A DNA stretch of 52,475 nucleotides from Nitrospirota bacterium (GCA_046753905.1 JBHHUU010000001.1:1-52475), one strand, 5' to 3'. Shown: positions 5,272 through 50,109, counted from the stretch's first letter. The notes: a model not told the origin generated them from the letters alone. A program made the numbers and translations.

Positions 5272-5314
5272 AAATAAGGATTTTCGTCTCCTAACTCCTG
5301 ACTGACTCCCAAAA

Positions 5315-6100
5315 TTATGAGATATAACCCAATATTGTAAAGAATATAAATCCTATTACCCCTAATATCCCGATAGTTGTTGCAATAGGCCTTTTTTTAG
5401 GATGTCTTTCTGGATTTTTATCAAAAAAAGGGAGTACAATAAGTAATAGTAAGAATATCATCTGCCCTACAACACCTATTACTTTAGGTGCCCATTGCCC
5501 CATAAATGTTAATACTTCAGATACCTTTAATATCTGATAAGAGGCAAGAAAAAACCACTCTGGTTTAATATGCTCAGGAGTAATTAAGGGATCTGCCTTG
5601 GGTTCCATAGGGGCAGGATTGAATATAACTAATGTGGAAATTATCCCTATCATAATAAAGACAACTATTATCTCTTTTAATGCGTGATCTGGCCAGAATG
5701 GAATTCCGCCCTCCTCTTCATATACAGGATTTAACAGATCTCTTGCAGATATAATCCCTACAGGTTTTCCATTGGCTGTAACCAGAAGATGTCTTATATG
5801 ATACCAGCTCATTGTCTCATTTGCCTTTACAGTGGATTCATTTTCATCAATCGCAGAGATAGGATAACTCATCACAGATTCAACAGATATTCGCGAGGGA
5901 GCAGCAGTCTTTTTTGTCATCACCTTTTTTACTATATCTACATCAGTGATAATGCCTACATATTCTTCCTCTTTCTTTACAAGTAGACTGTTTACCTTAT
6001 GCTGTTTCATGGTTGAGGCAGCACTCTTCACAGTCTCATTGTATGAGATAGAAAGGGGATTTGTAGTCATTACCTTTTTAACTGGAATTATAGGGATCAT
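5315..6100 (-). CDS. CBS-pair domain fused to cytochrome bc/b6f subunit IV (cytochrome b C-terminal part)
   Basis: Residues 1-125 form two CBS-like repeats (VMTTNPLSI...VGIITDVDIV and VMSYPISAI...VGIISARDLL). Residues 126-261 carry three TM helices and the subunit-IV/PetD signature PEHIKPEWFFLASYQILK. Confidence 0.8.
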   Translation of the reverse strand: MIPIIPVKKVMTTNPLSISYNETVKSAASTMKQHKVNSLLVKKEEEYVGIITDVDIVKKVMTKKTAAPSRISVESVMSYPISAIDENESTVKANETMSWYHIRHLLVTANGKPVGIISARDLLNPVYEEEGGIPFWPDHALKEIIVVFIMIGIISTLVIFNPAPMEPKADPLITPEHIKPEWFFLASYQILKVSEVLTFMGQWAPKVIGVVGQMIFLLLLIVLPFFDKNPERHPKKRPIATTIGILGVIGFIFFTILGYIS

Positions 6101-6107
6101 TTCTTTA

Positions 6108-6160
6108 GTTCCTTGTTAGTTCCTTGTTCTTGGTTATTAGTTCTTAGTTTTTTGTTCAAA
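6108..6160. repeat. Heptanucleotide tandem array in the cyt b / subunit IV spacer
   Basis: gttcctt gtta gttcctt gttcttg gttatta gttctta gtttttt gttcaaa (consensus GTTCTTN). Confidence 0.8.
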
Positions 6161-6198
6161 AATTTAAAACAAAGCGCTAAGGGTTTACCGCAAAATAA

Positions 6199-6936
6199 TT
6201 ACAGTGACTCAGAGATGCCCAGCCTCCTCAATATTAAAAAGTGCAATGCCAGAAGACCTACCATAATCCACGGAAGTATAATGACATGCAGGGCAAAGAA
6301 TCTTGTCAGGGTAATCTGACCTACATCAGGACCACCTCTAATCAGGTTTTTCAGCATTGGGCCTATCACAGGGACAGCACCTGGTATCTCTGTTCCAACA
6401 GTAGTAGCCCAATAAGATATCTGGTTCCACGGCAGAAGATATCCTGTAAAGCCAAATGTAAGTGTAAGACATAGCAAAATCACACCTACTACCCAATTCA
6501 GGTCCCTTGGAGGTTTATATGCACCATAGAAGTATATTCTTACCATGTGTATCAATATAGTAATCATCATTATATTTGCTGACCAGTGATGAAATCCTCT
6601 GATTAACCACCCGAACGGTGCATTATTGGTTATATGCACCACACTCTCATAGGCATGATCTATGGTTGGTCTGTAATACATTAAGAGCATTACTCCGCTT
6701 GTTGCATTTATTACAAATAGCAGGAATGTAATCCCTCCAAAGCAGAACCAGAAATTTACATGACCCGGCACAGGTTTTTTAAGAACCTTTTTAAGGGAAT
6801 CTCTTAACTCCAATCTCTCATCAAGCTCTCCATAGAATAATCCTGTTGCCAGAGTAAGCCAGTTAAGTATACCTTTGAGATTTACCTTTTTTTCAGTCTT
6901 CTTTGCTATATCATTTATCTCTTTTTGTCTAAACAT
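6199..6936 (-). CDS. Cytochrome b6-type subunit (N-terminal four-helix part of cytochrome b)
   Basis: FHHWSANIMMITILIHMVRIYFYGAYKPPRDLNW and TRFFALHVIILP blocks with the conserved heme-ligand histidines. Split-type b followed by a separate subunit IV gene. Confidence 0.9.
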   Translation of the reverse strand: MFRQKEINDIAKKTEKKVNLKGILNWLTLATGLFYGELDERLELRDSLKKVLKKPVPGHVNFWFCFGGITFLLFVINATSGVMLLMYYRPTIDHAYESVVHITNNAPFGWLIRGFHHWSANIMMITILIHMVRIYFYGAYKPPRDLNWVVGVILLCLTLTFGFTGYLLPWNQISYWATTVGTEIPGAVPVIGPMLKNLIRGGPDVGQITLTRFFALHVIILPWIMVGLLALHFLILRRLGISESL

Positions 6937-6987
6937 TCTCCCCTCACCCTTAACAATTATTTTCCTGTCTCTTGCGGCAGAAAATTT

Positions 6988-7101
6988 GAATAATGAATAT
7001 CGAATATGGTTACTGAGCCTGTCGAAGTAAGAAATGATATGTGTAGATGGAAAAGAGTGTAAATAAATTCATCATTCAATATTCCTTGTTCGATATTCAT
7101 T
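6988..7101. repeat. Inverted repeat built from heptamers in the Rieske / cyt b spacer
   Basis: The left arm is gaataat gaatatc gaatatg. aatgaatatcgaa (6992-7004) is the exact complement of ttcgatattcatt (7089-7101). The right arm overlaps the Rieske stop codon. Confidence 0.75.
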
Positions 7102-7573
7102 ACCCTATTATGATCTTATCATCTACAATTTTAGTTTCGTATGTAGGGAGGGGCTTAGGAGCTGGTCCTCCCAGTACATTCCCATTAAGGTCAAAAGAAG
7201 AGGCATGACATGGGCAAAACAGTATATTTTTATCAGGCTGCCACTCTACAATGCACCCTAGATGAGTACATATAAGTGAAATCGCATGGACATTATTATC
7301 AACCATAATTACACCTATTGGTCTCCCCTTTAATATTACCTTTTTTATCCTGCCTTCCGGAAGGATATCGGATAAAGGAAGACTTATCCTCTTATCATCA
7401 ACGCCTCCTCTTGTCTTTTCTGTAGGCCAAATATATTTCAGTCCTGTGTATCCTGCCCCTATTGATGCTATTATTCCCCATATAACTATGCCGATATTAA
7501 TTGTCTGCTCAAAAAAACTTCGTCTATCTATATTATTCGAACTGTTCTCTTCATGTTTCGTTATATCTTCCAT
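7100..7573 (-). CDS. Rieske [2Fe-2S] subunit
   Basis: N-terminal TM helix plus the cluster-binding boxes CTHLGC and CPCHAS. Confidence 0.9.
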   Translation of the reverse strand: MEDITKHEENSSNNIDRRSFFEQTINIGIVIWGIIASIGAGYTGLKYIWPTEKTRGGVDDKRISLPLSDILPEGRIKKVILKGRPIGVIMVDNNVHAISLICTHLGCIVEWQPDKNILFCPCHASSFDLNGNVLGGPAPKPLPTYETKIVDDKIIIG

Positions 7574-7736
7574 TAAAGTACCTCTTTAAAGTAAGACATT
7601 TTATTTATCTCCGATAAGTTTAGTTAAACTAACATCTTTGTTATAATATAAACATAGCACAAAGTCTGATAATTGTCTAATTCCCAAAAACTTGAGATAT
7701 AAATGGGAGAGGGTTGAGGTGAGGGTGAAATATTGA

Positions 7737-8672
7737 TCAGAAATGGAATCTGATGGTAATACTTGCCTCAACGCCATTTAATTCTAATGGAAGTTCTATT
7801 GGAACCCTGACTGTCCTTTCTACATTGCTGCTCGTATCTATACCAAAGGTAAGAGCATCACCTTCTTCAGGTGGTGGCGGTGGTGTAGGCTGACTATCAC
7901 CTGCCAGCGCAGGGACATCTACAACTGGCGGAAAGTTTGGCGGAAAGTACCTGTCTATCTTGACTTTTAGTGTCTTACCAATAACATAGTTGAGCTTAAT
8001 TCCAAAAGAAAGCCATTTTCTTAAAAAGTATTCTCCTCCCATTCCAATACGTGAAGTATAGGCTAAACCTCTTGCTTCTGTAGAGCTGACAGAAGCAAAA
8101 CTCAGACCAAATTCAGGTGCGACTACCTTTATTAGGGAATCCATTGTGAGATGAGACAGTGAAACACCTAAAAATTCAATATTGGTGAATAGTGTGCTAT
8201 GCTCTTTGTTATCAAACAGGTTATATCTCCAGCCTATCCAGAATTGATTTATTGTAATGTTATACGCTGCGCTTCTTGGCGCCAGGACAGTGTCATCAAG
8301 GGTAAGTATCGGCAGGTCATATAAGTCTTCTGATTTCCCCCTTCCTTCCCATATTGAAATTGTAAATGTCAGACTATGTCTCTCTTTTATCCTATATTGT
8401 GCCTCTATACCATAATTAAACTTCTCTTTTATGTTTGATACCGTGATGTTTCTATCGCTCCTATTCACATCTTTTATACTGCCGGGCAAAAGAAAATTAG
8501 GGTCCTGTTCTATTGCCAGACTACTATCATTAATCACCCTCCTTAATGTCTTCAGAGAGGGTTTATAATATCCCATTATATATCCTATGCTCCATCTTGA
8601 CTCCTCTCCATATACCTGTCCACAACAGAATATTAATACTATAAGAAATGACAAAAATAGCCTGATTTTCAC
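7737..8672 (-). CDS. Hypothetical outer-membrane beta-barrel protein
   Basis: Signal peptide, alternating beta-strand pattern, a PTPPPPPEEG insert, and a C-terminal ...RFHF typical of OMP sorting signals. No family recognised. Confidence 0.5.
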   Translation of the reverse strand: MKIRLFLSFLIVLIFCCGQVYGEESRWSIGYIMGYYKPSLKTLRRVINDSSLAIEQDPNFLLPGSIKDVNRSDRNITVSNIKEKFNYGIEAQYRIKERHSLTFTISIWEGRGKSEDLYDLPILTLDDTVLAPRSAAYNITINQFWIGWRYNLFDNKEHSTLFTNIEFLGVSLSHLTMDSLIKVVAPEFGLSFASVSSTEARGLAYTSRIGMGGEYFLRKWLSFGIKLNYVIGKTLKVKIDRYFPPNFPPVVDVPALAGDSQPTPPPPPEEGDALTFGIDTSSNVERTVRVPIELPLELNGVEASITIRFHF

Positions 8673-8693
8673 CCTCTGTTTTTTCTCCTTTGA

Positions 8694-8815
8694 AAATCCC
8701 CCCTTCCCACCTTACCAAGGGGAGATTTCCATATATCTCTTACTAAATGGTTTCCCCCTTTATTAAGGGCTATTTCTATAGATTCCCCCTTTGGAAAAGG
8801 GGGTTAGGGAGATTT
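8694..8815. repeat. Cluster of C-run/G-run hairpins
   Basis: aaatcccccctt (8694-8705) faces aaggggagattt (8717-8728). ccccctt (8785-8791) pairs with aaggggg (8797-8803). gggagattt recurs at 8807-8815. Confidence 0.7.
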
Positions 8816-8821
8816 AGCTTT

Positions 8822-11247: not shown

Positions 11248-11267
11248 AGTTATATTATATAGATTTC

Positions 11268-11451
11268 GTAACTATTCAGCTAATACAGAGCAAGGGTTCC
11301 AAAGACTTTATAATGCGTATGATTATAATAAGTTTATTAAGATACAACAGCATCATTTCAGATCAGGTCTCTATGAGTAGTGAGACCTAATCGCTAAGGT
11401 GACGCTATAAACTCTTTCCCACCCCTCACCCTGTAACAACTGAATAGTTAC
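11268..11451 (+). mobile_element. MITE-like repeat, full copy (184 bp)
   Basis: Terminal inverted repeats gtaactattcagctaatacagagcaaggg / ccctcaccctgtaacaactgaatagttac. About 90 percent identical to the copies at 16526 and 24377. Confidence 0.85.
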
Positions 11452-13718
11452 ATATTATTTAAGCGTTTTCTTGCCTTTTCTGCAAATTCTTTATACCTCT
11501 CATCCTTATCCGCTAACTTTAAGAATTTCTCATAATAGATTATCGCCTCATCTAATTTGTCAGCAGAATCCAATGTATATGCAAGATTATACAATGCCTC
11601 AGGATAATTAGGTTTTCTCTTTAATGCCTCCTTATACTCCTTTATTGCCAGTTCAGATCTGCCCTGTTTGTAGTATATCACACCCATATTATAATAGGCT
11701 ATAGTTCGAGCAGAATCATTCCTTATACTATCTTTGAACTCCTTTAATGCCATATCCAGATTACCCTGTTCAAAATAGATAAGCCCAAGATTATAGTGGG
11801 CATCGGCAATATCTGGGTCAAGCCTCAATGCCTTCTTATATGCATCTATGCTTAGATCGATCCTGCCTGTCCTTTTGTAAAGAATGCCCAGTGTATTATA
11901 AACAAGGGGAGCATTCGGAAATATCTCAATAACTCTCTTATATTCATCAATCGCCATATCCCATTTCTTCTGGTCCAGATAAATAGACGTCAGAGCATCA
12001 CGGGATAGAAAATGATATGGATTTATGGATAATGCCTTTTTATACTCATCAATAGCCTTATCCATATTACCCTGACGCTGATATATTAATCCTATTCTAT
12101 AGTGTGCCTCATAGAATCCCGGCGCAACACGTAAAGTATCACGATATTTATTTAAGGCAGAGTCTATATCTCCCTTGTTAAAATATGCCATACCAAGGTT
12201 GTAATGGGCAAAATAGAATTTTGGCAAAAGCTCTATTGCCTTTTTGTATTCCTCAATAGCCATATCGATATTCCCATTTCTGGCATAATTAAGTCCCAGG
12301 TCACTATGCACGGTACTGGAATCGGGTGTCTTTTTTAGATTGTCACTCCAGAAGAGAATAGGATCCTTCCACAGATTATTCCTCTGAACAGTCCATACAG
12401 ACTGTGTGAGAATCAAAATTATAGGGAAAGAGCAGTACGCAGTAAACAGCAAGTAATTATGTGGAGATGATCTGTATCTGAATTTAATCATATCTGCTAA
12501 CTTTACAATCCCTATAGCTGCTATTATAAAGAATCCTATGGAAGGCAGATATAACCTGTGCTCAAAGACCAGCCATAGCCGTATTACAGTAGACTCTATC
12601 ACAAGGTTTAAGAAAAACCATAGTATAAAAAAGGAGATAACAGTCCTTCGCTTATATATGTATATACCATACCCTATTATACCAAAGATTATAAGCATAC
12701 AGATAAATGTACTGACTGGATTGAACAGGGAATGGGATACAGAAAACTCGTATATAAGTCTTAATCTTGATGGCAATGGTAATAATAATAGAGTTATGTA
12801 ATATATTACTACTCTGAATTCAGTAATCAATCTCTGTAAGGCAGTAAATTCCTGTTCTATGCTCCGTGCTGCCATCAAGCCCTTTATCCCCTTTATTATA
12901 CCTTTTTGACTACCTGCACCTATATATATAAACCCTATTACAATAAAGGATATGACCATTATAATAAAATATGGACATGCCTTTTTTATCTTTTTGAGAT
13001 CAAACCGGGCAAAAAAGTATATCTCATAGAGGATTATTATTAACGGTAATGTGATTGTGATCTCCTTACTTCCAAAGGCAAGAAGGGCGAAAAACAGAGA
13101 AGTCAGAAGCCAGAAGTTAGAAGTTAGAAGTCCATCTGACTTCCCTTTGTTCCTGACTTTTGACTTCTGACTCCTGTTCCATGATACCCTTCCCTTCACA
13201 TAACATAATAGTGACAGTATATAAAACATCGTTGCCATAGATGTTGCACGCTGAACTATATATGTTACTGCCTGAGTCTGAACAGGTGATGTCGACCAGA
13301 GAAGGGCGGCAATTATGGCTATCCAGAAGGGTTTATCTCGAAACTCGAAACTCGAAACTCGAAACTCTTTTATTCTCTGCCCCCTTATCTCCAGTGTTAT
13401 CTTCAGAAAAAGATATAGACTAATAGTAGTAATTATATGAATAATAATGTTTACAATGTGATATCCTGATACATCAAGACCTCCAAAATAGTAATTTATG
13501 GCAAAGGTTATGTTAGTAACCAGACGACGGACGGAGTCATTATTAAAGATACCCTTCATAAACCCATCTGGAGAGAGTGTAGTTATCTTGATGAATATAT
13601 TATCTACTATAATCGCATAATCATCAAAATAAAATGGGACATCAATGGTATTAGAATAAAGGATTATCACAATAACAGGAATTATTAATAAAATTATCTT
13701 GGGGAAAGATTGTTTCAT
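11448..13718 (-). CDS. Membrane GT-C-like / TPR-repeat protein (TMTC/PMT-like putative glycosyltransferase), paralog 1
   Basis: About 450 aa with 10 or more TM helices, followed by about 9 TPR repeats. Paralogous to the adjacent gene. The stop codon lies inside the MITE terminus. Confidence 0.7.
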   Translation of the reverse strand: MKQSFPKIILLIIPVIVIILYSNTIDVPFYFDDYAIIVDNIFIKITTLSPDGFMKGIFNNDSVRRLVTNITFAINYYFGGLDVSGYHIVNIIIHIITTISLYLFLKITLEIRGQRIKEFRVSSFEFRDKPFWIAIIAALLWSTSPVQTQAVTYIVQRATSMATMFYILSLLCYVKGRVSWNRSQKSKVRNKGKSDGLLTSNFWLLTSLFFALLAFGSKEITITLPLIIILYEIYFFARFDLKKIKKACPYFIIMVISFIVIGFIYIGAGSQKGIIKGIKGLMAARSIEQEFTALQRLITEFRVVIYYITLLLLPLPSRLRLIYEFSVSHSLFNPVSTFICMLIIFGIIGYGIYIYKRRTVISFFILWFFLNLVIESTVIRLWLVFEHRLYLPSIGFFIIAAIGIVKLADMIKFRYRSSPHNYLLFTAYCSFPIILILTQSVWTVQRNNLWKDPILFWSDNLKKTPDSSTVHSDLGLNYARNGNIDMAIEEYKKAIELLPKFYFAHYNLGMAYFNKGDIDSALNKYRDTLRVAPGFYEAHYRIGLIYQRQGNMDKAIDEYKKALSINPYHFLSRDALTSIYLDQKKWDMAIDEYKRVIEIFPNAPLVYNTLGILYKRTGRIDLSIDAYKKALRLDPDIADAHYNLGLIYFEQGNLDMALKEFKDSIRNDSARTIAYYNMGVIYYKQGRSELAIKEYKEALKRKPNYPEALYNLAYTLDSADKLDEAIIYYEKFLKLADKDERYKEFAEKARKRLNNM
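11473..11975. repeat. 503-bp direct repeat, copy A (3' end of TPR paralog 1)
   Basis: By line-by-line comparison it reads identical to 13771-14273. Confidence 0.9.
13098..13172. repeat. In-frame palindromic heptamer array inside TPR paralog 1
   Basis: (agaagtc agaagcc agaagtt agaagtt agaagtc) catct (gacttcc ctttgtt cctgact tttgact tctgact). It is 75 bp, or 25 codons, and is absent from paralog 2. Confidence 0.85.
13337..13367. repeat. (CTCGAAA)x4.4 tandem repeat inside TPR paralog 1
   Basis: ctcgaaa x4 plus ctc. It encodes EFRVSSFEFRD on the minus strand. Confidence 0.9.
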
Positions 13719-15974
13719 CTATCGTTTTTTATACAGGCGAGTTTTTTTTCCTATTTTAAGCTGTTCTTTAGCCTTTTCTGCAAATTCTTTATACCTCTCA
13801 TCCTTATCCGCTAACTTTAAGAATTTCTCATAATAGATTATCGCCTCATCTAATTTGTCAGCAGAATCCAATGTATATGCAAGATTATACAATGCCTCAG
13901 GATAATTAGGTTTTCTCTTTAATGCCTCCTTATACTCCTTTATTGCCAGTTCAGATCTGCCCTGTTTGTAGTATATCACACCCATATTATAATAGGCTAT
14001 AGTTCGAGCAGAATCATTCCTTATACTATCTTTGAACTCCTTTAATGCCATATCCAGATTACCCTGTTCAAAATAGATAAGCCCAAGATTATAGTGGGCA
14101 TCGGCAATATCTGGGTCAAGCCTCAATGCCTTCTTATATGCATCTATGCTTAGATCGATCCTGCCTGTCCTTTTGTAAAGAATGCCCAGTGTATTATAAA
14201 CAAGGGGAGCATTCGGAAATATCTCAATAACTCTCTTATATTCATCAATCGCCATATCCCATTTCTTCTGGTCTGTATATATCCTTCCTAATTCTATATA
14301 CGAATAGATATTATCCTTGTATCTCTCTTTTAACAATTTATATACCTTGACAGCCATATTAATATCCTCTTTTTTTTCATATAGCATGGCAAGGTTAATG
14401 TATGCCTTAATTTTTGAGGGATCACTTCTTATTACCTCTATATATTGCTCAATGGCAGGTTCTGTCTCCTCTGTCTCTTCATATATCTGTGCTAAGTTAT
14501 TATGTGCTGTAGTATAGTCGGGATCTATCTCTATAGCCATCTTGTATTCTTTAACAGCGGAATCTATATCTCCATGACTATAATAATGTACTCCTAATTC
14601 ATTATGAGGATCACTCAAATAGGGTTCCTTTTTTATATTATCTCTCCAGAGGAGAGATACATCCTGCCAGACATAATTTCTTTGTATAGTCCATAGAGAC
14701 TGTATAAAAATGACAGCTATTATAATGATGCAGTTGGCAGCAGGCAGCAGGCAGTCAGGGAGAGATGAAACAGTTGAATTTTTTCTGTACTTTACCATCT
14801 CTGTAAACTTTACCATACCCACACCAACTATAACAAAGAATCCTATGGATGGCAGATATAATCTGTGCTCAAAGACTAAATGTAATCTTGTTATTAGAGA
14901 TTCTATCACAAGGTTTAAAAAAAACCAGAGCATAAAAAAGGAGATAACACCCCTTTTTCTAACTATAGACAAGGCATATACAATTAATCCGAGAATAATA
15001 ACAATGGCTGGGATAGTGGTAAGAGGATCAAATAATGAATGTGAAACAGGAAAATTATATAGTACCCTGAGTCTTGAAGGCAGAGGGAGTATAAGTAGCG
15101 TTATATAATAAATAATTACCCTGAATTGAGTTAAAATCCTCTCTCCTGCTGTAAATGCCTGCTGTTCAATGTTACTTACAGGTGGTTCTGTTAATCTCTT
15201 TAAGGCACTAATAATCCCTTCATCCATATACAGGTGACTGAATATAAGGACAGATACCATAATAATACCTGTAAAATAGATTGCCCTTTTCCTCATCCTT
15301 TTAGTGTTAGATTGTGTAAAAAAGTATATCTCATACAGGATAATTACAAAAGGGAGTGTGGCTGATATCTCCTTACTCCCAAAGGCAAGAAAGGCGAAGA
15401 CAGTAGACAGTAGATAGTAAAGAGCAGGGTGACCCCTGCCACCTGATATCCTTCCATTCACATAACATAGCAGCGACATCATATAAAACATAGTTGCCAT
15501 AGAGGTTGCACGTTGAACTATATATGTTACTGCCTGTGTTTGTACAGGAGATGTTGACCAGAGGAGGGCAGCAATCATACCTATCCAGAAAGACCTGTCC
15601 GAAATACAAGGGTCTTTTGTTTTCTGCACCCTCATTTCCAGAGTTATATACAGAAACAGGTATATTGTAATCGCAGTAATTATATGAATAATAATATTTA
15701 CAATGTGATACCCATACACCTCAAGTCCTCCAAAATAGTAATTTATGGCAAAGGTTATGTTAGTAATTGGACGATTACGGGAGATAGAACTATTATGGAC
15801 TATATTTTTTAATGTATAGACTGAAATATCTGTCAGATGGATTGCATTATTATCAACAATATTTCTTATATCATCATAGAGGAAAGGACTATAGAGTGAA
15901 TTTAGATGGATTATAGATATAAGGATTGTGATAAATGATACTGCAACGATATGTTTTTTCTTTATATTATCCAC
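13719..15974 (-). CDS. Membrane GT-C-like / TPR-repeat protein, paralog 2
   Basis: Same architecture as 11448-13718. Conserved N-terminal blocks (TNITFAINYYFGG, LLWSTSPVQTQAVTYIVQRATSMATMFY). Identical C-terminal stretch of about 167 aa. Confidence 0.7.
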   Translation of the reverse strand: MDNIKKKHIVAVSFITILISIIHLNSLYSPFLYDDIRNIVDNNAIHLTDISVYTLKNIVHNSSISRNRPITNITFAINYYFGGLEVYGYHIVNIIIHIITAITIYLFLYITLEMRVQKTKDPCISDRSFWIGMIAALLWSTSPVQTQAVTYIVQRATSMATMFYMMSLLCYVNGRISGGRGHPALYYLLSTVFAFLAFGSKEISATLPFVIILYEIYFFTQSNTKRMRKRAIYFTGIIMVSVLIFSHLYMDEGIISALKRLTEPPVSNIEQQAFTAGERILTQFRVIIYYITLLILPLPSRLRVLYNFPVSHSLFDPLTTIPAIVIILGLIVYALSIVRKRGVISFFMLWFFLNLVIESLITRLHLVFEHRLYLPSIGFFVIVGVGMVKFTEMVKYRKNSTVSSLPDCLLPAANCIIIIAVIFIQSLWTIQRNYVWQDVSLLWRDNIKKEPYLSDPHNELGVHYYSHGDIDSAVKEYKMAIEIDPDYTTAHNNLAQIYEETEETEPAIEQYIEVIRSDPSKIKAYINLAMLYEKKEDINMAVKVYKLLKERYKDNIYSYIELGRIYTDQKKWDMAIDEYKRVIEIFPNAPLVYNTLGILYKRTGRIDLSIDAYKKALRLDPDIADAHYNLGLIYFEQGNLDMALKEFKDSIRNDSARTIAYYNMGVIYYKQGRSELAIKEYKEALKRKPNYPEALYNLAYTLDSADKLDEAIIYYEKFLKLADKDERYKEFAEKAKEQLKIGKKTRLYKKR
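13771..14273. repeat. 503-bp direct repeat, copy B (3' end of TPR paralog 2)
   Basis: Reads identical to 11473-11975. Confidence 0.9.
14731..14758. repeat. Heptamer array (GCAGNNG)x4 inside TPR paralog 2
   Basis: gcagttg gcagcag gcagcag gcagtca. Confidence 0.75.
15398..15418. repeat. Heptamer array (AGACAGT)x3 inside TPR paralog 2
   Basis: agacagt agacagt agatagt. Its reverse complement is the same unit as the array at 47963. Confidence 0.8.
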
Positions 15975-25437: not shown

Positions 25438-25476
25438 GTTGAGTAGTTGAGTAGTTGAGTGGTTGAGTGGTTAAAT
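25438..25476. repeat. 8-nt tandem array (GTTGAGTR)x4
   Basis: gttgagta gttgagta gttgagtg gttgagtg gttaaat, immediately after the HDOD stop codon. Confidence 0.85.
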
Positions 25477-25533: not shown

Positions 25534-28092
25534 ATGCTGAAATATACAGTCTCAAGACCATCACGTTATATTGGCGGAGAGATAAATTCTGTCAGGAAAG
25601 ATTTAACAGAGGGCAGGATAAAGATAGTCCTAATCTTTCCTGACCTTTATGAGATTGGTGTATCCCATTCAGGTCTTAAAATACTCTATCAGATATTAAA
25701 TGACAGAGATGATGCGGCAGTTGAGAGGGCGTATGCTCCATGGACAGATTATGAAGAGATGATGATCCGGAAGAATATGCCCCTTGTCAGTTTGGAATCT
25801 GCTCTTCCTATCAGGGAGTTTGATATTATTGGATTTACACTCCCTTATGAATTGACATTTACAAATATTCTCAACATATTAAAACTTTCAGATATCCCTT
25901 TATACGCCTATGACAGAGACAGAGAATATCCTCTGATTATTGGCGGCGGTTCATCTGTGTTTAATCCTGAACCATTGGCAGATTTCTTTGATGCCTTTAT
26001 CTTAGGGGATGGAGAAGATGTAGTTAATGAGGTTGTAGACATATATCAGGAGTGGAAGAGAGATGTGGGATCAAAGGAGGAAATCCTGAAAGTATTAGCA
26101 CGAATAGAAGGTGTATATGTACCGTCTCTTTATAAGATATGTTATAGAGGTAATATTATTGATTCTGTCTCTCCGCTTTATCCAGCACCTTCAAAAGTAA
26201 GAAGGAGGATAGTTAATGACCTGAATAATGCACAATATGCAGATAGACCTGTGCTGCCTTATACAAAGGCTGTCCATGACAGGTTTTGTGTGGAGATATC
26301 AAGAGGTTGTACTCATGGATGCCGATTTTGTCAGGCAGGCATAATATATAGGCCTGTCAGGGACAGAAGCATGGACAATATAGAAGGGATCATAGATAAA
26401 GGTCTTAAGTATACCGGATATGGTGATGTCTCATTGTTATCTCTCAGTTCAGGAGATTATCCCTGTATAGCTCTTCTTTTGACAAGACTTATGGATAAAT
26501 ATGAAAAAGACAGAGTCTCCTTTTCTCTGCCGTCTTTAAGAGTTGGTACATTAACACCAGATGTTTTAGAACAGATAAAGAGGGTAAAAAGGTCAGGATT
26601 TACTCTTGCACCTGAGGCAGGAACCAATAAGCTAAGGCAGGTAATCAATAAAGATATTTCAGATGATGAGCTTGATGAGATAACAGGCAGATTATTTAAA
26701 GAGGGATGGAAAAAGATTAAGTTTTATTTTATGATAGGCTTGCCGACTGAAGAGGATAAAGACCTTCAGGGCATTATTGACCTCTGTAGAAGGGTGAATA
26801 GAAGGCGTGGCAAGATAAAGGCAAGTATATCTACATTTGTGCCAAAGGCACATACGCCGTTTCAATGGCTGGGACAGATATCTATTGAAGAGATCAAAAG
26901 GAGACAGAGGTTTATAAGAGATGAACTTAAGGGCATAAAGATAGAGGTTGATACACATAAGCCTGATGTTAGCCATATTGAGGCGGTATTATCGCGTGGA
27001 GATAGAAGATTGGGAGAGGTGTTGAGATTAACGATGGAAGATGGGTCAAGGTTTGATGGGTGGACAGATATATTTTCCTTTGATAGATGGAGACGGATAT
27101 TTGAGAAGACAGGGATAGACAGCTCATTCTATGCGTGCAGAGATATTGATATAAAAGAGATATTGCCATGGGAACATTTAGATACAGGAGTGACAAGGGA
27201 TTTTTTGATTGCCGAGCTTCATAATGCATATTCTGGAACGACTACCTCTGATTGTCGTTGGGGGAAATGTCATGATTGCGGGGTATGTATTAAGAAAGGG
27301 GACATGTTAATAAGTCCTGTGTCGGCAGGGGGCAGGGAGCAGGGGGCAGAAAACGGGAATCAAGGATTAAGGATCAGGGATCAGATAAAGGGTCTCCCCG
27401 GAATTGGTTATAGATATCGTATAAGATTTTCCAAAGAGGGTAAACTCCGTTTTCTTTCCCATCTTGAGCTTATAGATACTATCTCAAGGTCACTCAGAAG
27501 AACAGGACTGCCTCTTTCTTTCTCATCTGGATTTACACCACATATAGAGATATCATTTGGTCCTGCCCTTTCTGTGGGGGTTGAGTCTATCTCTGAATAT
27601 ATGGATATAACAATATCACAACCAATAGACCCAGAATATATAAAAGAGGTCATCAATAGAAATATGCCTGATGGTATTTGTATTCTGGAAACGAGGAGAA
27701 TACTACCTGACTCTAATAGTCTCAGTAAAATTATCTCTGGTTATTCGTATGAGATAGAGGTAAATAGTGGTCTATTTAAACTTGATAAGCAGATACTGAA
27801 CAGATTTCTCATTATGGATGAGATACTGGTAAATAAGACTACAAATAGAGGCAAAAAAGTAGTTGATGTAAGACCTTTTATTGAAAGGTGTGAATTGATG
27901 ACGAATGCTGAAAAGAGGATATTTCTCTTTTTAAAGAATCAGAATAATAATATATGCAGACCGCAGGATGTCTTACAGGGAATAATAAACTTTATTAATG
28001 GGAATGAAAAGAGTATATTAAAGAATGGGGATGCAAAAGTAACAAGAACAGGGATGTATGTGAACAGGGATGGGCAATGGTGTAAACCATAA
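25534..28092 (+). CDS. Radical SAM protein fused to a DUF2344-like C-terminal domain (the family usually found upstream of rng/rne)
   Basis: CTHGCRFC (CX3CX2C) at about residue 259. The C-terminal part starts at YRYRIRFSKEGKLRFLSHLE. The family names are from memory (TIGR03960 plus TIGR03936). Confidence 0.75.
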   Translation: MLKYTVSRPSRYIGGEINSVRKDLTEGRIKIVLIFPDLYEIGVSHSGLKILYQILNDRDDAAVERAYAPWTDYEEMMIRKNMPLVSLESALPIREFDIIGFTLPYELTFTNILNILKLSDIPLYAYDRDREYPLIIGGGSSVFNPEPLADFFDAFILGDGEDVVNEVVDIYQEWKRDVGSKEEILKVLARIEGVYVPSLYKICYRGNIIDSVSPLYPAPSKVRRRIVNDLNNAQYADRPVLPYTKAVHDRFCVEISRGCTHGCRFCQAGIIYRPVRDRSMDNIEGIIDKGLKYTGYGDVSLLSLSSGDYPCIALLLTRLMDKYEKDRVSFSLPSLRVGTLTPDVLEQIKRVKRSGFTLAPEAGTNKLRQVINKDISDDELDEITGRLFKEGWKKIKFYFMIGLPTEEDKDLQGIIDLCRRVNRRRGKIKASISTFVPKAHTPFQWLGQISIEEIKRRQRFIRDELKGIKIEVDTHKPDVSHIEAVLSRGDRRLGEVLRLTMEDGSRFDGWTDIFSFDRWRRIFEKTGIDSSFYACRDIDIKEILPWEHLDTGVTRDFLIAELHNAYSGTTTSDCRWGKCHDCGVCIKKGDMLISPVSAGGREQGAENGNQGLRIRDQIKGLPGIGYRYRIRFSKEGKLRFLSHLELIDTISRSLRRTGLPLSFSSGFTPHIEISFGPALSVGVESISEYMDITISQPIDPEYIKEVINRNMPDGICILETRRILPDSNSLSKIISGYSYEIEVNSGLFKLDKQILNRFLIMDEILVNKTTNRGKKVVDVRPFIERCELMTNAEKRIFLFLKNQNNNICRPQDVLQGIINFINGNEKSILKNGDAKVTRTGMYVNRDGQWCKP
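27324..27386. repeat. Nine tandem heptamers forming the interdomain linker of the rSAM/DUF2344 gene
   Basis: ggcaggg ggcaggg agcaggg ggcagaa aacggga atcaagg attaagg atcaggg atcagat. It is 63 bp, or 21 codons. Confidence 0.85.
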
Positions 28093-37552: not shown

Positions 37553-37576
37553 ATATTAAAGTCTCTTTTAAATTAA

Positions 37577-37606
37577 GGGTGCAGGATGAGATTTGATTCT
37601 GCACCC
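37577..37606 (-). terminator. Hairpin downstream of lpxA
   Basis: gggtgcag / ctgcaccc 8-bp stem with a 14-nt loop, followed on the minus strand by ttaatttaaaag. Confidence 0.35.
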
Positions 37607-37625
37607 TGCACTGACAACTGCACCC

Positions 37626-38429
37626 TTATCTACATATTCCCCGTTTTGAGTTCTCAACAAAGGTCAGCAGATTTTCTACTTCCTGACAATCTTTAAACTC
37701 ATCTCTTACTTTTTTTATGGCATTTTTCAGAGTATAGTTTGATCTGAACAGTATTTTATAAGACCTTTTCAGTCTGTCTATCTTCTCTCTGCCAAAACCA
37801 TGTCTCTTTAATCCGATCATATTAATGCCATAAAGCCTTGCCCTGTTTCCTACAGCACTCATATATGGAGGAACATCCTGAGCAACAGCAGAACAGCCTC
37901 CAATCATAGAATATATCCCTATATTAACAAATTGATGAATGCCTACTAATCCCCCTACAATAGCGTAATCTCCTATCTTTATATGACCGGCTAATGTAGC
38001 TGCATTTGCCATTATTATATTATTCCCTATCTCGCAATCGTGGGCTATATGGACATAAGCCATAAAGAGATTGTCATCTCCTATTCGGGTTACTTTCATT
38101 TCCTCTGCTGTGCCGCGATTTACAGTCACAAACTCTCTGAATGTATTTCTATCTCCTATTATTATCTTTGACTCTTCTCCTTTAAACTTTAAATCCTGAG
38201 GTATAGTCCCTATTATAGAAGAGTGAAAGATATTAGAGTTCTCTCCTATCTCTGTCCATCCTTCTATAACTACATGAGAACCTATCCGTACCCCCCTTTT
38301 TATCCTTACATGTTCCCCTATAGTTGAATAAGGTCCTATACTGACATCTGCGTCAATTTCAGCCTTTGTGTGAACTATTGCTGTATGATGAATATTATTC
38401 ATTTCTGCTATCTGAAATACATCCCTCAA
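37626..38429 (-). CDS. lpxA: Acyl-ACP--UDP-N-acetylglucosamine O-acyltransferase
   Basis: Left-handed beta-helix hexapeptide repeats plus a helical C-terminus. In the conserved position after fabZ. The true start may be ATG 38402 (MNNIHHTAIVH). Confidence 0.9.
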   Translation of the reverse strand: MRDVFQIAEMNNIHHTAIVHTKAEIDADVSIGPYSTIGEHVRIKRGVRIGSHVVIEGWTEIGENSNIFHSSIIGTIPQDLKFKGEESKIIIGDRNTFREFVTVNRGTAEEMKVTRIGDDNLFMAYVHIAHDCEIGNNIIMANAATLAGHIKIGDYAIVGGLVGIHQFVNIGIYSMIGGCSAVAQDVPPYMSAVGNRARLYGINMIGLKRHGFGREKIDRLKRSYKILFRSNYTLKNAIKKVRDEFKDCQEVENLLTFVENSKRGICR

Positions 38430-44729: not shown

Positions 44730-44736
44730 AAAATGG

Positions 44737-44770: not shown

Positions 44771-44875
44771 CTTCTTTGTGTCGGAAAATACTTATTAATT
44801 ATTAAGGGTTCAAGGGTTCGAGTGAAAAAACTGTATGTTCATTCTTGTTTGTGCCGATTAGTTACCATTATTGTT

Positions 44876-45812: not shown

Positions 45813-47174
45813 ATGCCAGTGGCAAAATTTGATCTGGTTCTGGACACAATAAAGCGATTTCTTCGTAAGGGTATCATAAATAAGATATCTAATATGATTA
45901 ATAAGATGCACCCTGCCGACATTGCCAAGGTAATAAGACACCTCTCATTGCCTCAGGAACGAAGAACAGTATTTGAGCTTATAAAAGATCTCCCTGTGAA
46001 GGCAAATGTTATAAGTGAAATTGATCCTTCAAGTATTGAAGACATATTAAATGAGATGTCTTCTCATGAAATTGTTATGATCTTCAAGGAGATACCCTCA
46101 GATGATGTGGCTGATATACTGGGCTATCTCCCTGAAGATAAATCTACAGAGATACTCCAGTTGATGAAGGTAGAAGATTCACAGGATGTTGAGGTATTGT
46201 TAAAGTATCATGAAGAGACTGCCGGCGGTATTATGACGACAGAATTCTTTGCCCTTCATGAAGAAACTACTGCCGGGGAGGCAACAAAAAGGCTTCAGAC
46301 TGATATTGATGCAGAGATGGTTTTTTATATATATGTAACAGATAATGAAGGCAAGCTGGTGGGTGTTGTCTCATTAAGGCAGCTACTATTGATCTCTCCT
46401 GATACAGCTTTAAGGAAATTTATGACAACAAATGTTATCAGTGTTGTAGTGGATACTGATCAGGAAGAGGTCGCAAGGCAGGTGGCAAGGTATAATATAC
46501 TTGCTATCCCTGTGGTAGATAAGGATAATATATTAAAGGGCATCATAACAGTAGATGATGTCATAGATGTTATCAGAGAAGAGGCAACTGAGGATATGTT
46601 AAAAATGGCAGGGACAGGGGAAGAGACACTAATGCTTGAGGCTTCAACTTTTATTGCTGCCAGATATAGACTGCCATGGCTGCTTACAAACCTGATTGGC
46701 GGTATATTCACAGCAGGATTATTATGGCTGTTCAGGTTAACTATTCGTGAGGTAATAGCGATTGTAAGTTTTATCCCTGTGATTAATTCAATGGCTGGTA
46801 ATATAGGACTTCAGTCATCTACAATTATAGTGCGCGGGCTTGCAACAGGAGGAATAGAATCAATCGATATCTATAAGGTCTTTTTAAAAGAACTGAAGGT
46901 AGGTGCATTAATGGGAATGATCTGCGGAACTATAGTAGGAATTGTAGCCTATATATGGCATGGTAATATAATGTTAGGTGTTGTTGTGGGAAGTTCAATG
47001 TTTATAGCAGTCGGTGTTGCTGCTACCATGGGAACTCTCGTTCCTTTATTCTTTAAGAGGTTTGATATAGACCCTGCCATCTCTTCAGGCCCATTTGTTA
47101 CTACTGTCAATGATATAACAGGGATTATTCTTTATTTAAGTTTAGCCACTTATTTATTAAATTATCTAATGTGA
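45813..47174 (+). CDS. mgtE: Magnesium transporter MgtE
   Basis: N-domain, CBS pair and a five-helix TM domain with GNIGLQSS and PFVTTVNDITG motifs. Confidence 0.9.
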   Translation: MPVAKFDLVLDTIKRFLRKGIINKISNMINKMHPADIAKVIRHLSLPQERRTVFELIKDLPVKANVISEIDPSSIEDILNEMSSHEIVMIFKEIPSDDVADILGYLPEDKSTEILQLMKVEDSQDVEVLLKYHEETAGGIMTTEFFALHEETTAGEATKRLQTDIDAEMVFYIYVTDNEGKLVGVVSLRQLLLISPDTALRKFMTTNVISVVVDTDQEEVARQVARYNILAIPVVDKDNILKGIITVDDVIDVIREEATEDMLKMAGTGEETLMLEASTFIAARYRLPWLLTNLIGGIFTAGLLWLFRLTIREVIAIVSFIPVINSMAGNIGLQSSTIIVRGLATGGIESIDIYKVFLKELKVGALMGMICGTIVGIVAYIWHGNIMLGVVVGSSMFIAVGVAATMGTLVPLFFKRFDIDPAISSGPFVTTVNDITGIILYLSLATYLLNYLM

Positions 47175-47195
47175 AAGAGTATAGGGGATGATATT

Positions 47196-47933
47196 ATGTC
47201 TCTATTAAATACATCTGCCTTTATACTGGGTAGCCATAATATAGGCGAGGCAGATAAAATAATAACCTTTTTTACTCTGAAGAATGGAAAGGTAAAAGGT
47301 GCAGCAAATGGTGTAAGAAAACCTAAAAACAGATTTGGTTCATCCCTTGAACCATTTACCTATTCCAATGTTATCTTATTTGAAAAAAGGAAGAACCACT
47401 TATATAGGATTAAGCAGTCCAGCATTATCCACTCTTTTCAAAAGATAAGGGATGATATCAAAAAGATTGTCGCTGCCTCAAGGATTGTTAACCTTGTTAA
47501 ACTCCTTACCATAGAAGGAGAAGTGGATGATAAGATATTTCAGCTTCTTCTTTTTTCTTTATCATATATAGAAAAAGAAGTGGAATATGAATTAATAACC
47601 AGAATATTTGAGATAAAGATGCTTAATTATTCTGGTTACAGACCAAGTCTTGACAGGTGTCTGAAATGTAACAATGATTTAGGAGACAGAGATATCTATC
47701 TATCCAATATTCTGGGTGGAACGATTTGCAGCAGATGTGCTGACAATAGAGATTATAATCTGCGTGCTATATCAAGAGGTGCTGTTGCCTTTTTAAATCA
47801 GGCAGATAAGATGAAATTATCTATAATAAATAGATTAAAGGCATCACCCAGAATAATAACTGAATTAAAAGAGATATCAGATTTTTACATCCCTCATTTT
47901 ATAGGAAGGGTGATACCTGATTGTGAGTTATAA
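47196..47933 (+). CDS. recO: DNA repair protein RecO
   Basis: OB-fold N-terminus (AFILGSHNIGEADKIITFFT) and a zinc motif (CLKCN...CSRC). Confidence 0.85.
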   Translation: MSLLNTSAFILGSHNIGEADKIITFFTLKNGKVKGAANGVRKPKNRFGSSLEPFTYSNVILFEKRKNHLYRIKQSSIIHSFQKIRDDIKKIVAASRIVNLVKLLTIEGEVDDKIFQLLLFSLSYIEKEVEYELITRIFEIKMLNYSGYRPSLDRCLKCNNDLGDRDIYLSNILGGTICSRCADNRDYNLRAISRGAVAFLNQADKMKLSIINRLKASPRIITELKEISDFYIPHFIGRVIPDCEL

Positions 47934-47943
47934 TCGGTGTGTT

Positions 47944-50109
47944 ATGAAACATATAAAATTAACTGTCTACTGTCTACTCTCTGCTGTCTACTGTCTATTA
48001 CTGCTCTCTGGATGCGGAGAAGAGCATGAAAAAAGACTCAGGAAGTTTTCCATTATTGCAAAGATCGAAATATCCCCCTCATCTTCTACGCTTATTATTA
48101 CAAATAACCAGCAATTTGTTGCTGTTGCAAAAGATAGGTCTGGCAGAGAGGTAAATGATATCAAATTTATATGGGAATCAGATAATGAAAGTGTTGTTAC
48201 TATTGATCCCGATACAGGTCTTGCTAATGCTGTAAGTAAAGGCAAGGCAAGAGTTAAAGCAATAAGCAGCGGGATTTTCAGTAATTCTGCGGTTATCACT
48301 GTTATTAATCCCATATCTGCCATAGAGATATTTCCACCATCTCCAGTTATTAATATAGGTACGAGTCAGCCGATTACCTCTATTGTAAAGGATATATCAG
48401 CCAATCAGATTAGTGGCATTGATGTAACCCTGACTTCAGACAACCCTTCTGTTGCTGTTATTGACAACAATGGTATTGCTTCCGGAATCAGTCAGGGAGA
48501 GGCAGCTATTACCGCATCTGTAGGCGGAGTCATAAGCAATCAGCCTGTAATACTAAATGTTAGTGATACTGTTGGAGTGTCTATAGCCCCTGTAATCAGT
48601 TCTATAGAGGTGTTTCCATCATCTGGTTCTATTGATGTATGCACAGATATGACATTTGTCCCGATTATATGGGATAACTCAAACCCATCCAAACAGGTTA
48701 GTGGTATTAATGTAACATGGAGTTCAGATAACCCTTCTGTTGCTGTTATTGACAACAATGGTATTGCTTCCGGAATCAGTCAGGGAAAGGCAGCTATTAC
48801 CGCATCTGTAGGTGGAGTTATAAGCAATACGGTTATCTTTACGGTAAACAATCCCATTTCTTCCATTGAGCTAATGCCTGTGACAGTATCTGCTCCAGCC
48901 TTAAAGATAGGTATGCAGTATCAGTTTACTGCAATAGCCAGAAATTCAATTGGAAACAATTTAAGCAGTATTAAGTTATCATGGGGATCAAGTGCTCCCC
49001 AGATAGCCTCTGTAGACCAGAACGGGCTGGTAACAGGAATATCAGGAGGGATTGCCCATATTACAGCCTCATGCGGAGGGATAGATAGTAACATTGGACA
49101 GATTAATGTGCTGAGAATAGTACCTAATCTGCTCTGGAAGCAGACCACCCAGCTCCCTCGCGGAAGATATGACCATACTGCCTCAGTAAATGGAGGGTTT
49201 CTTTATATCATAGGAGGTGTTTCATTTGGCGGTTTTCAGAATTCTGTCCACTTTGCACAGATAAATAATAATGGTACATTAGGTGCGTGGAACTTGGCGG
49301 CAGAACTTCCTCTGGAAAAGGCAATAAGGGGACATACTACAGTTGTAGGCAATAATTCTCTCTATGTGATGGGCGGGATTGAGAGTGGAATACCAGAACA
49401 ATCTCTTACTACCATATTCTCTGAGGTTGTTGTAGCCACATCAGATATAGGCATACCAATAGATATATGGAAGACAAATCTCAATCCTCTGCCTATCGGA
49501 CTGTTTGCACATGGAGCAGTATTTGCCAAAAATTATATCTATGTAATCGGCGGGTGGGAAGGCACACTAAACTCTGATGCTGTATTCTTTGCACCTATCC
49601 TTAATAACAGCCTGATTGGTAAATGGAACGAAACCACCCCTCTTCCAAAGGGTCTGAGCAAACATATTGCCCTTACTAATGGAGAATATATATATGTAAT
49701 AGGAGGTTCAACAGGTGGAATAGAAGATGTTGAGATAGCTCAGACGAATTCATACTTTACCAAAATAAATAATGACGGCACGTTAAATGGATGGCAGACC
49801 ACTACTCCATTGCCCATTGGAATAGAAGACCACTCTGCTGTTATGGTGGGAGGGTATATCTTTGTAATAGGCGGTTGGAATGGATGGGACCCCATGACAA
49901 TAGAAAACAGAGTATTCTTTTCTCCTATAAACTATATTGACGGGTCCCTTGGTATATGGCAGGAGGCAAGCCCTATACCAGAGGCTTTATACAGCCATGC
50001 AGCGGTTGTAAACGGAGATATCATATATGTAACAGGCGGTATTAGAGGTACTGAAGGAAAAGCAGACGAGAGGAAGCGCACAGTCTATTACACAAGATTG
50101 CAGAACTAA
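47944..50109 (+). CDS. Lipoprotein with four or five Big_2 (bacterial Ig-like) domains and a C-terminal Kelch-type beta-propeller
   Basis: Lipobox LLLLSGC. Repeated ...SDNxSVVTID/VAVIDNNGIA.GIS.G.A.ITAS modules. The C-terminal half has repeats with GG..G motifs (YIIGG, YVMGG, YVIGGW x3, YVTGG). The ORF track starts at GTG 47923. Confidence 0.75.
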   Translation: MKHIKLTVYCLLSAVYCLLLLSGCGEEHEKRLRKFSIIAKIEISPSSSTLIITNNQQFVAVAKDRSGREVNDIKFIWESDNESVVTIDPDTGLANAVSKGKARVKAISSGIFSNSAVITVINPISAIEIFPPSPVINIGTSQPITSIVKDISANQISGIDVTLTSDNPSVAVIDNNGIASGISQGEAAITASVGGVISNQPVILNVSDTVGVSIAPVISSIEVFPSSGSIDVCTDMTFVPIIWDNSNPSKQVSGINVTWSSDNPSVAVIDNNGIASGISQGKAAITASVGGVISNTVIFTVNNPISSIELMPVTVSAPALKIGMQYQFTAIARNSIGNNLSSIKLSWGSSAPQIASVDQNGLVTGISGGIAHITASCGGIDSNIGQINVLRIVPNLLWKQTTQLPRGRYDHTASVNGGFLYIIGGVSFGGFQNSVHFAQINNNGTLGAWNLAAELPLEKAIRGHTTVVGNNSLYVMGGIESGIPEQSLTTIFSEVVVATSDIGIPIDIWKTNLNPLPIGLFAHGAVFAKNYIYVIGGWEGTLNSDAVFFAPILNNSLIGKWNETTPLPKGLSKHIALTNGEYIYVIGGSTGGIEDVEIAQTNSYFTKINNDGTLNGWQTTTPLPIGIEDHSAVMVGGYIFVIGGWNGWDPMTIENRVFFSPINYIDGSLGIWQEASPIPEALYSHAAVVNGDIIYVTGGIRGTEGKADERKRTVYYTRLQN
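47963..48011. repeat. Heptamer array (CTGTCTA family) encoding the signal-peptide hydrophobic core
   Basis: ctgtcta ctgtcta ctctctg ctgtcta ctgtcta ttactgc tctctgg. Confidence 0.85.
48442..48540. repeat. 99-bp near-identical internal repeat, copy 1 (Big_2 module)
   Basis: Differs from 48730-48828 at 3 positions. The offset of 288 bp equals one Ig-like domain. Confidence 0.9.
48730..48828. repeat. 99-bp near-identical internal repeat, copy 2
   Basis: See 48442-48540. Confidence 0.9.

Follow-up and report, generated by a model that had tools for sequence, protein, structure and literature searches.

Heptanucleotide tandem arrays in a Nitrospirota genome: period-7 preference, placement and possible origin

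Short tandem arrays lie at many places within and between the genes of a 52,475-nucleotide (nt) stretch of DNA from a Nitrospirota bacterium (GCA_046753905.1, JBHHUU010000001.1:1-52475; hereafter the window, meaning this whole stretch), and most of them repeat a unit of 7 nt whose letters change from site to site. The question that this locus raises is how so many different heptamers came to be repeated in one genome, and whether seven is a favoured length at all. A sequence-only reading of the window had called such arrays pervasive, had named at least ten heptamer sites with site-specific units, several of them forming hairpins, and had left as its puzzle the mechanism that seeds them. Here we find that the heptamer arrays are real and highly non-random, that they belong to the heptanucleotide class of long simple-sequence repeats (SSRs), and that their period-7 specificity lies in expansion beyond two copies and not in seeding.

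Period 7 and the step at which it is favoured

Arrays were called with Tandem Repeats Finder (TRF), with a score of 30 as the reporting threshold, in the window and across the genome (2.45 Mb in 273 contigs, 37.7% GC, 98.8% complete), and chance expectations were taken from order-3 Markov simulations, with 100 runs for the window. Nine period-7 arrays of at least 3 copies occur in the window, against a simulated mean of 0.32 and maximum of 3. Across the genome TRF reports 158 period-7 arrays with 3 copies or more, compared with 63, 49 and 41 at periods 6, 8 and 9; at a minimum of 4 copies the counts are 93 for period 7 and 31, 21 and 5 for the other three, so that the heptamer is the commonest long-SSR class in this genome. 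When only exact arrays of at least 3 copies are counted, period 7 retains 33, period 6 retains 7 and period 8 retains 2, and the simulations yield 0.0. The sequence-only reading had proposed a comparison of period 7 with periods 6 and 8 and with a shuffle as its own check, and that comparison bears it out, as does the report by TRF of period-7 arrays at nearly every coordinate that it named; most of the heptamer sites that it listed stand, and the two weak ones are 5288-5308 and 6988-7008, which hold 2-3 degenerate units and score below the TRF threshold. Only one other contig encodes this cytochrome b protein, an independently assembled Logan contig (L009, SRR29324593); along 6.7 kb, in which three array sites lie, it shows 100% identity, which leaves it uninformative.

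Seeding and growth behave differently with respect to unit length. Exact 2-copy duplications exceed expectation by similar factors at 6 nt (1.7x), 7 nt (1.9x) and 8 nt (2.0x), and the seeding of different heptamers that had been offered as the puzzle is to that extent ordinary. Growth from 2 copies to at least 3, by contrast, is found in 33 per 418 cases at period 7, 2 per 129 at period 8 and 7 per 1349 at period 6. What stands of the puzzle is the 7-nt step itself.

Among the 158 arrays there are 78 classes of unit, rotations and strands being pooled. Unique flanks surround 98 arrays (~60%), and for these the description of the units as site-specific is apt; it does not hold for the 60 arrays whose flanks are common to other copies, among them a family of dispersed palindromes with GCAGGGT arms, to which 25-31 arrays belong, ten arrays of an AAATTCG family and those of a glycosyltransferase-like paralog family. 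We looked for a universal motif among the array units and found a best trinucleotide enrichment of only 2.1x. We therefore reject a universal motif, and a sequence-specific enzyme is unlikely to be the general cause. The AAATTCG/TTCGAAT arrays, whose unit includes the palindrome TTCGAA, have 6-8 copies and were seen at C14:16719-16769, C40:15866-15908, C51:11797-11840, C201:2597-2638, C54:2-119 and C267:12-53.

An inverted partner of the same unit lies within 120 nt of 42 of 157 arrays (27%), compared with 2 and 8 in two controls (Fisher p = 1e-7). The claim of several hairpins in the sequence-only reading thus holds across the genome, for a minority of arrays, and within the window it reduces to one among the listed sites, 13098-13176, whose DNA fold has an energy of -17.5 kcal/mol (z = -3.9). 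No hairpin fold was found at 6100-6165 (z = -0.45) or at 27318-27392, and a search for plasmid matches to the hairpin region returned none.

Arrays between genes and arrays read within proteins

Placement was scored against a crude set of longest open reading frames (ORFs) with a coding fraction of 0.87, in which N-terminal array positions depend on the choice of start codon. By this measure 77 arrays are intergenic, 68 (43%) lie inside ORFs and 13 cross an ORF edge. The 77 intergenic arrays among the 145 that can be assigned to one side are confined to 13% of the genome, which gives a density about 7-fold that within genes (binomial p = 9e-30). For 61 intergenic arrays there is a gene on either side; the pair is co-directional in 55 cases, divergent in 5 and convergent in 1, set against a background by base of 68%, 21% and 11% (p = 4e-5). 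The median distance is 25 nt from the upstream stop and 49 nt to the next ORF, and strand relative to transcription shows no strong preference (23:15). A terminator role was considered and rejected, with only 1 of the 61 arrays between convergent genes.

The 68 arrays inside ORFs are read in frame, and the segments that they encode are loops, linkers, signal peptides and membrane helices. Units rich in pyrimidines, such as CTGTCTA and CTTCTGG, give hydrophobic runs (LSTVYCL, LLASGFW) that form signal-peptide cores or the starts of membrane helices, and complement units such as TCAGGAG, AGAAGTC and GCAGGGT give hydrophilic linkers (QESGVRS, GAGCRVQ). The sense unit is free of stop codons in 54 of 67 coding arrays, compared with 61% of random genomic heptamers. 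Copy number, too, differs between the two settings: among clean arrays (at least 85% matches), those at 3.x, 4.x and 5.x copies number 12, 19 and 7 in coding sequence and 13, 2 and 0 between genes (Fisher p = 0.004), a contrast picked after viewing the data. A coding peak at 4.x copies is as expected from a resident unit growing by three units, or 21 nt. In the genome TRF table, arrays of at least 2 copies number 26 at period 21, against 6 at period 20 and 7 at period 22, a surplus that is likewise as expected if in-gene heptamer arrays gain a 3-unit superstructure under frame constraint.

Housekeeping genes are among the hosts. In MurE (C2:35329-36915), (CAGGGAT)4.4 encodes an insert of 16-18 residues just ahead of the conserved ITVFGCGGDRD strand; the two solved homologues that match best, whose alignments alone were displayed, lack it. 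The protein itself ends in LSFSFSP. Arrays also lie in the genes for PGK, a PheS-like synthetase and a GspE-type ATPase.

The most instructive hosts are eight close GT-C/TPR glycosyltransferase-like paralogs, which carry arrays in the same two loops with units that differ from one paralog to another; more distant paralogs are without the first loop. Two such paralogs lie in the window. Paralog A (11448-13718) has in its first loop a perfect minus-strand array of 4.4 copies (TRF) at 13337-13367, sense GAGTTTC, translated as the loop KEFRVSSFEFR. The first loop of the paralog on contig C28 is of near-equal length and holds (AGTTCAG)4.6, and that on C157, again of near-equal length, has at the DNA level one intact GTTCAGA followed by decayed heptamer periodicity. 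The hairpin of paralog A, also on the minus strand, consists of two complementary arrays, (AGAAGTC)5.0 at 13098-13132 and (CTGACTT)3.4 at 13153-13176 (TRF and fold); both are read in frame, one arm encoding the basic loop RSQKSKVRNKGK and the other GLLTSNFWLLTS, the first half of a membrane helix. The GACTTCT unit at 13098 holds a stop, and the TGA that would fall in frame is TGG at every third unit. Paralog B (13719-15974) has, on the same strand, 3.3 copies of GGCAGCA at 14736-14759, near residue 405, and 3.1 copies of AGACAGT (sense CTGTCTA) at 15398-15419, which encode YYLLSTV at the start of a membrane helix (TRF and translation). The latter site is homologous to 13098-13132 of paralog A, and its unit differs. 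Judged from sequence comparison, the pattern in these loops is that expected from the concerted evolution of a tandem array. In a further paralog the first loop holds a G-rich REP-like element (C128:7190-7286; GGGGAGAGGGTTAGGATGAGGGG), at which the contig ends, so that one protein loop tolerates several sorts of repeat insert. This truncated paralog was considered as a frameshifted OFF allele and rejected, being merely cut by the contig end inside the REP-like element.

Two further coding sites of the window, both on the plus strand, fit the same range of settings. The adjacent arrays (GGCAGGG)3.7 at 27324-27349 and (ATCAAGG)3.6 at 27359-27383 (TRF) supply the linker SAGGREQGAENGNQGLRIRDQ between the domains of a radical-SAM/DUF2344 fusion protein (25534-28092; Pfam). 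In three orthologues at about 51% identity (genomes G004, G012 and G020) the linker is about as long but unrelated in sequence. At 47962-47997, 5.1 copies of CTGTCTA (TRF, letters) encode the hydrophobic core of the predicted lipoprotein signal peptide MKHIKLTVYCLLSAVYCLLLLSG/C of a Big_2/Kelch surface protein (ATG at 47944; Pfam), in which we take the residues before the cysteine to be a lipobox. Other predicted signal peptides in the genome also hold such arrays.

Probable slippage in place and its alternatives

We think it fairly probable that replication slippage, with its optimum at 7 nt, produces the arrays where they stand and that selection then filters them. We favour this reading because what the sequences show, namely a period-7 excess located at the expansion step, variation by whole units and filters on arrays in coding regions, joins with the lack of a common motif and with turnover in place at the paralog loops to describe a process that is expansion-specific, motif-free and subject to frame constraint. 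Chance 2-copy duplications of any short length would arise at ordinary rates, and slipped-strand mispairing in replication or repair would lengthen 7-nt units far more readily than units of 6 or 8 nt. Arrays of 3-8 copies would accumulate, and repeated gain and loss of units would homogenise them. Selection would set which survive: within genes, only those in segments that tolerate them (loops, linkers between domains, the cores of signal peptides, membrane helices), where they would use stop-free units or patch the in-frame stop, and would change in three-unit steps of 21 nt. Template switching at quasi-palindromes is a known class of replication error, and the inverted pairs at unique sites probably come from it. 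We infer from the finished arrays both that slippage is the physical process and that these pairs come from template switching. Loss of mismatch repair was considered as a cause and set aside, MutS being present.

Several points weigh against this reading. Slippage alone leaves the preference for 7 nt unexplained, and pure slippage does not predict that units of CAG followed by purines (CAGRRR) should be enriched, as they are 4x here and 8x in an unrelated repeat-rich metagenome-assembled genome (MAG); this class is partial and, like the 4.x-copy peak, was picked post hoc. The 27% of arrays with inverted partners call for an additional mechanism. Ongoing change in copy number is something that we infer, and no relative above 71% cytochrome b identity was found in the collections. 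The longest-ORF gene calls on which placement depends are crude. Finally, the closest sampled genome by cytochrome b, G054, has no period-7 excess while a distant one, G042, has 177 arrays per Mb, which points to a lineage-specific factor.

Such a discrete factor, setting the 7-nt register of slippage and driving expansion, and gained or lost sporadically across phyla, is a possibility to which we give limited weight. It is suggested because expansion and not seeding is period-specific, because array density ranges more than 15-fold among the genomes sampled, and because CAG-purine units recur in unrelated genomes. The role could fall to an altered component of the replisome or of repair, or to the loss of such a component. 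If this is true, naming the factor would settle a question that dates from the description of the STRR repeats.

Alternatively, the arrays could be delivered ready-made by mobile hairpin elements of the REP/REPIN or MITE kind, single arrays then being half-decayed elements. One family of this genome invites that explanation. GCAGGGT, the largest unit class with 31 arrays, forms the arm of a dispersed palindrome of about 75 nt (AGGGTGCAGTTGTCAGGGTGCAGGGTGCAG - loop - CTGCACCCTGCACCCTGACAACTGCACCCT) with a consensus 30-nt stem, found in 61 arm copies and at such places as C139:4134-4210, C109:6460-6536, C96:4919-5047 and, in the window, 37576-37626. Length differences among its otherwise conserved copies amount to whole units: 22 arms have 1 unit, 37 have 2 and 2 have 3. 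Some variants have an 85-nt loop insert with a GTTGGGC box. Many contigs start or finish inside the element, which is a major cause of the fragmented assembly; on the contigs examined, full elements lie between ordinary large genes (300-900 residues). Because of this setting, and because the base of the stem has the wrong box order for an integron attC site, we class the element as putatively REP/MITE-like. The attC candidacy itself fails on the stem base, 5'-GTTCAGA...TCTGAAC-3', which is opposite to 5'-RYYYAAC ... GTTRRRY-3', and no intI lies nearby on C2. Integron integrase genes do exceed the NCBIfam cut-off at C192:1-789 and C2:3631-4581, the former at a contig start, so that any cassette array there is not joined in this assembly.

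The case for mobile hairpins as the general source draws on this family, on the 60 arrays with shared flanks, on the excess of inverted partners over both controls, on the REP-like element that sits in the paralog loop of C128 and on the presence of Y1 (IS200/RAYT-type) transposase genes. Yet the 98 arrays with unique flanks and the 78 unit classes are too many for element families, 73% of arrays have no inverted partner, and the two Y1 transposase genes examined are beside neither GCAGGGT elements nor arrays. The paralog loops, moreover, turn over in place at constant length, and the 4.x-copy bump within genes fits growth by units. Mobile hairpin elements cover about a fifth of the arrays and not the unique-site majority, and as an account of the whole we regard them as unlikely.

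The intergenic arrays might instead be selected sites for a nucleic-acid-binding protein with a 7-nt register that tunes translation in operons, for instance a protein of the OB-fold or cold-shock type, or else a post-transcriptional regulator of the kind proposed for the TAACTGA repeats of Beggiatoaceae (MacGregor 2015, PMC4679880). The bias towards co-directional neighbours (55 of 61) and the short median distances to the genes on either side would suit this, as would the AGGAG present in some arrays, such as 5288-5308, and the arrays that lie about 1 kb past cytochrome b in two relatives, perhaps at the same junction as judged by distance only. The units are nevertheless too diverse for a single sequence-specific binder, strand orientation is close to even, and 43% of arrays lie inside genes, those for MurE and PGK included; an Rfam search of the window matched no known RNA family. 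We consider selected binding sites an improbable general explanation.

That 7 is not divisible by 3 raises the further prospect that the arrays are contingency loci, in which adding or removing a single unit would change the frame and turn envelope proteins on or off. Arrays do lie in the predicted signal-peptide core of the Big_2/Kelch lipoprotein and in other predicted secreted proteins, in the eight glycosyltransferase-like paralogs and, by a hand count that rests on uncertain ORF starts, within the first 30 codons of about 16 of the 68 coding cases. Phase variation is a plausible reading of the arrays in the lipoprotein and glycosyltransferase-like genes. It is not general, because essential genes (MurE, PGK, the PheS-like synthetase) carry arrays too, and there the off state would be lethal. 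No frameshifted OFF allele was found, the only other assembly being identical over its 6.7 kb and the lone truncated paralog being explained by its contig end, and the 4.x-copy bump in coding arrays indicates selection for preservation of the frame. Contingency is accordingly a very doubtful account of the arrays at large.

Chance, composition or assembly artefact, for which one might cite an AT-rich genome in 273 contigs, can be given almost no credence: exact arrays number 33 where simulation gives none and those of the window 9 where it gives 0.32, G054 (43.6% GC) shows no period-7 excess, and the arrays are not assembly artefacts because the independent Logan contig is identical and reading frames are kept open through them.

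Other genomes, known heptamer systems and minor sites

Period-7 density was compared across genomes sampled at 170-400 kb each. This genome has 64 arrays per Mb, followed by G012 with 40, G004 with 30, G002 with 24 and G006 with 18, in all four of which period 7 exceeds period 8; G054 has 10.7. The highest value, 177 per Mb, belongs to G042 ("Nitrospinae bacterium RIFCSPLOWO2_12_39_16"), with 35 period-7 arrays against 6 at period 6 and 5 at period 8, and this MAG would be a better model for heptamer arrays than the present genome. The nearest GTDB genomes belong only to the same class, and scans of metagenome and genome contigs with cytochrome b gave as best matches MAGs of Nitrospirota/Nitrospiraceae, none of them above 71% identity. 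Of 83 loci recovered by these cytochrome b scans, most have no heptamer arrays within 10-20 kb and a few have 11-13. The trait is patchy across and within phyla, which matches the literature on long SSRs. In G042 (loci L212-L231, and also L135, L136, L166 and L167), one 20-kb locus holds 13 arrays; the units of this MAG overlap those found here (AGAAGCC, CAGAAGC, TCTGACT) and include one TAACTGA-type array. In G012, which is of the same class as our genome, a hairpin at L024:1738-1872 has arms of about 60 nt, (CAGAAGA)8.7 facing (TATTCTG)9.0.

The analogy that the sequence-only reading drew with cyanobacterial STRR repeats is sound: the general phenomenon is the same, short tandem heptamers at many loci of an AT-rich genome, mostly intergenic, with units mostly unlike the published ones. 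The STRR units of Calothrix and Nostoc are CCCCAGT (STRR1), TTGGTCA (STRR2) and CAACAGT (STRR3). Neither CCCCAGT nor CAACAGT, nor TAACTGA, occurs among the 158 arrays of this genome, and TTGGTCA forms two short arrays, of 2.6 and 3.3 copies, a match that chance could well produce among 1172 unit classes. The present host is not cyanobacterial, and its unit classes are many where those of STRR repeats are few. Two other systems resemble the coding arrays. Rickettsia palindromic elements are mobile elements of about 100-150 nt, in few families, that lie in frame in protein genes; like them, the repeats described here can be hairpin-capable and are read in frame in housekeeping proteins, where surface loops tolerate them, but ours are mostly local tandem heptamers with unique units. 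The leader peptides of Neisseria opa genes contain CTCTT pentamer repeats, for which phase switching has been demonstrated. There too a pyrimidine-rich repeat whose unit length is not a multiple of three encodes a signal-peptide core; our unit is longer, at 7 nt, and arrays of this sort lie in essential genes too. To our knowledge, heptamer arrays in cyanobacteria, Beggiatoaceae, Xanthomonas and Burkholderia have gone for decades without an accepted mechanism or function.

The TAACTGA repeats of marine Beggiatoaceae, which also occur in some cyanobacteria and Bacteroidetes, are intergenic arrays of 2-6 copies near start codons in operons, with a patchy distribution across phyla (MacGregor 2015, PMC4679880). 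They resemble our intergenic arrays in these respects and differ in having one dominant unit, related heptamers being rarely repeated, where this genome has 78 unit classes. The distribution of XisH tracked that of TAACTGA in the same work; we did not find XisH in 19 genomes searched, this one included, a weak negative in that the controls were silent as well. The GGGAATC repeats of Xanthomonas and GGGGA(C/T)T repeats of Nostoc (Rehm 2015, PMC4692102) share with ours numerous G-rich arrays, commonly of about 4 units, and some inverted stem-loop pairs; here, however, the GCAGGGT arrays are the arms of a defined 75-nt palindrome, each with three GGG tracts and so usually short of the four-tract quadruplex motif. 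The units of this genome agree with none of the STRR, TAACTGA, GGGAATC and GGGGA(C/T)T systems more than chance allows.

The closest class is that of the long SSRs surveyed by Mrazek, Guo and Shah (2007), as that survey is represented in PMC4679880 and PMC4692102. By these accounts, heptamers are the commonest long-SSR class in most repeat-rich bacteria, contact of the polymerase with 7 nt was proposed to favour slippage, and units of multiples of three dominate coding regions. Our arrays share with long SSRs, so described, tandems of 7 nt that are longer than chance allows, the prevalence of heptamers, a sporadic occurrence across phyla, an intergenic surplus and a proposed origin by slippage; they differ in lineage, an uncultured Nitrospirota, and in the unusually large share found in frame inside genes. 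No paper on such heptamers in either Nitrospirota or Nitrospinota came out of a literature search. The class is a known one to which a new lineage is added, and the findings on expansion, turnover and 21-nt steps leave that category unchanged.

The phenomenon is nonetheless extended to Nitrospirota and to a very repeat-dense "Nitrospinae" MAG, and any mechanism is now constrained by 7-nt specificity at the level of expansion, by turnover in place to different units at homologous sites of paralogs and by 21-nt steps within genes. There are practical consequences as well: the arrays and the GCAGGGT palindromes break assemblies, accounting for many of the 273 contig ends, and annotators should not take the low-complexity protein inserts that arrays produce for frameshifts or new domains.

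Of the remaining sites of the window, three lie between genes on the minus strand, in or beside the Rieske/cytochrome b operon. The weak array at 5288-5308, read by eye from the letters (sense GAGTCAG TCAGGAG TTAGGAG), is flanked by the stop of cytochrome b subunit IV and the ATG (5271) of a multihaem cytochrome gene as placed by ORFs, and its AGGAG copies are Shine-Dalgarno-like. In two relatives at 70-71% cytochrome b identity, heptamer arrays follow the end of cytochrome b at a distance of about 1 kb (L141:11698-11729, ATAGCTA x4.6; L087:11689-11717, GCTAATG x4.1); with the junction placed by distance and not by ORFs, the three may mark one operon junction at which arrays recur, or a coincidence. 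Between cytochrome b6 and subunit IV, 6116-6157 holds a degenerate array of 6.0 copies with 71% matches (TRF; sense GAACTAA/GAACAAG), its letters the same in the Logan contig, and 6988-7008, between the Rieske and cytochrome b genes, has the three weak units GAATAAT GAATATC GAATATG, again read from the letters.

The copy of the GCAGGGT-armed element at 37576-37626 (plus strand; from the family listing and fold) is a shortened one between two minus-strand genes, with a fold of -12.6 kcal/mol (z = -3.4), and had not been listed in the sequence-only reading. The 8-mers and 9-mers that were listed there are reported again by TRF: on the plus strand, the intergenic octamer array (GTTGAGTA)4.4 at 25438-25472, 6 nt past a stop codon and 62 nt ahead of the radical-SAM ATG; a 2-copy 8-mer at 44804-44819; and, again on the plus strand, the perfect intergenic nonamer array (ACTAATAAG)3.9 at 2306-2340, which lies 26 nt upstream of an ATG at 2366.

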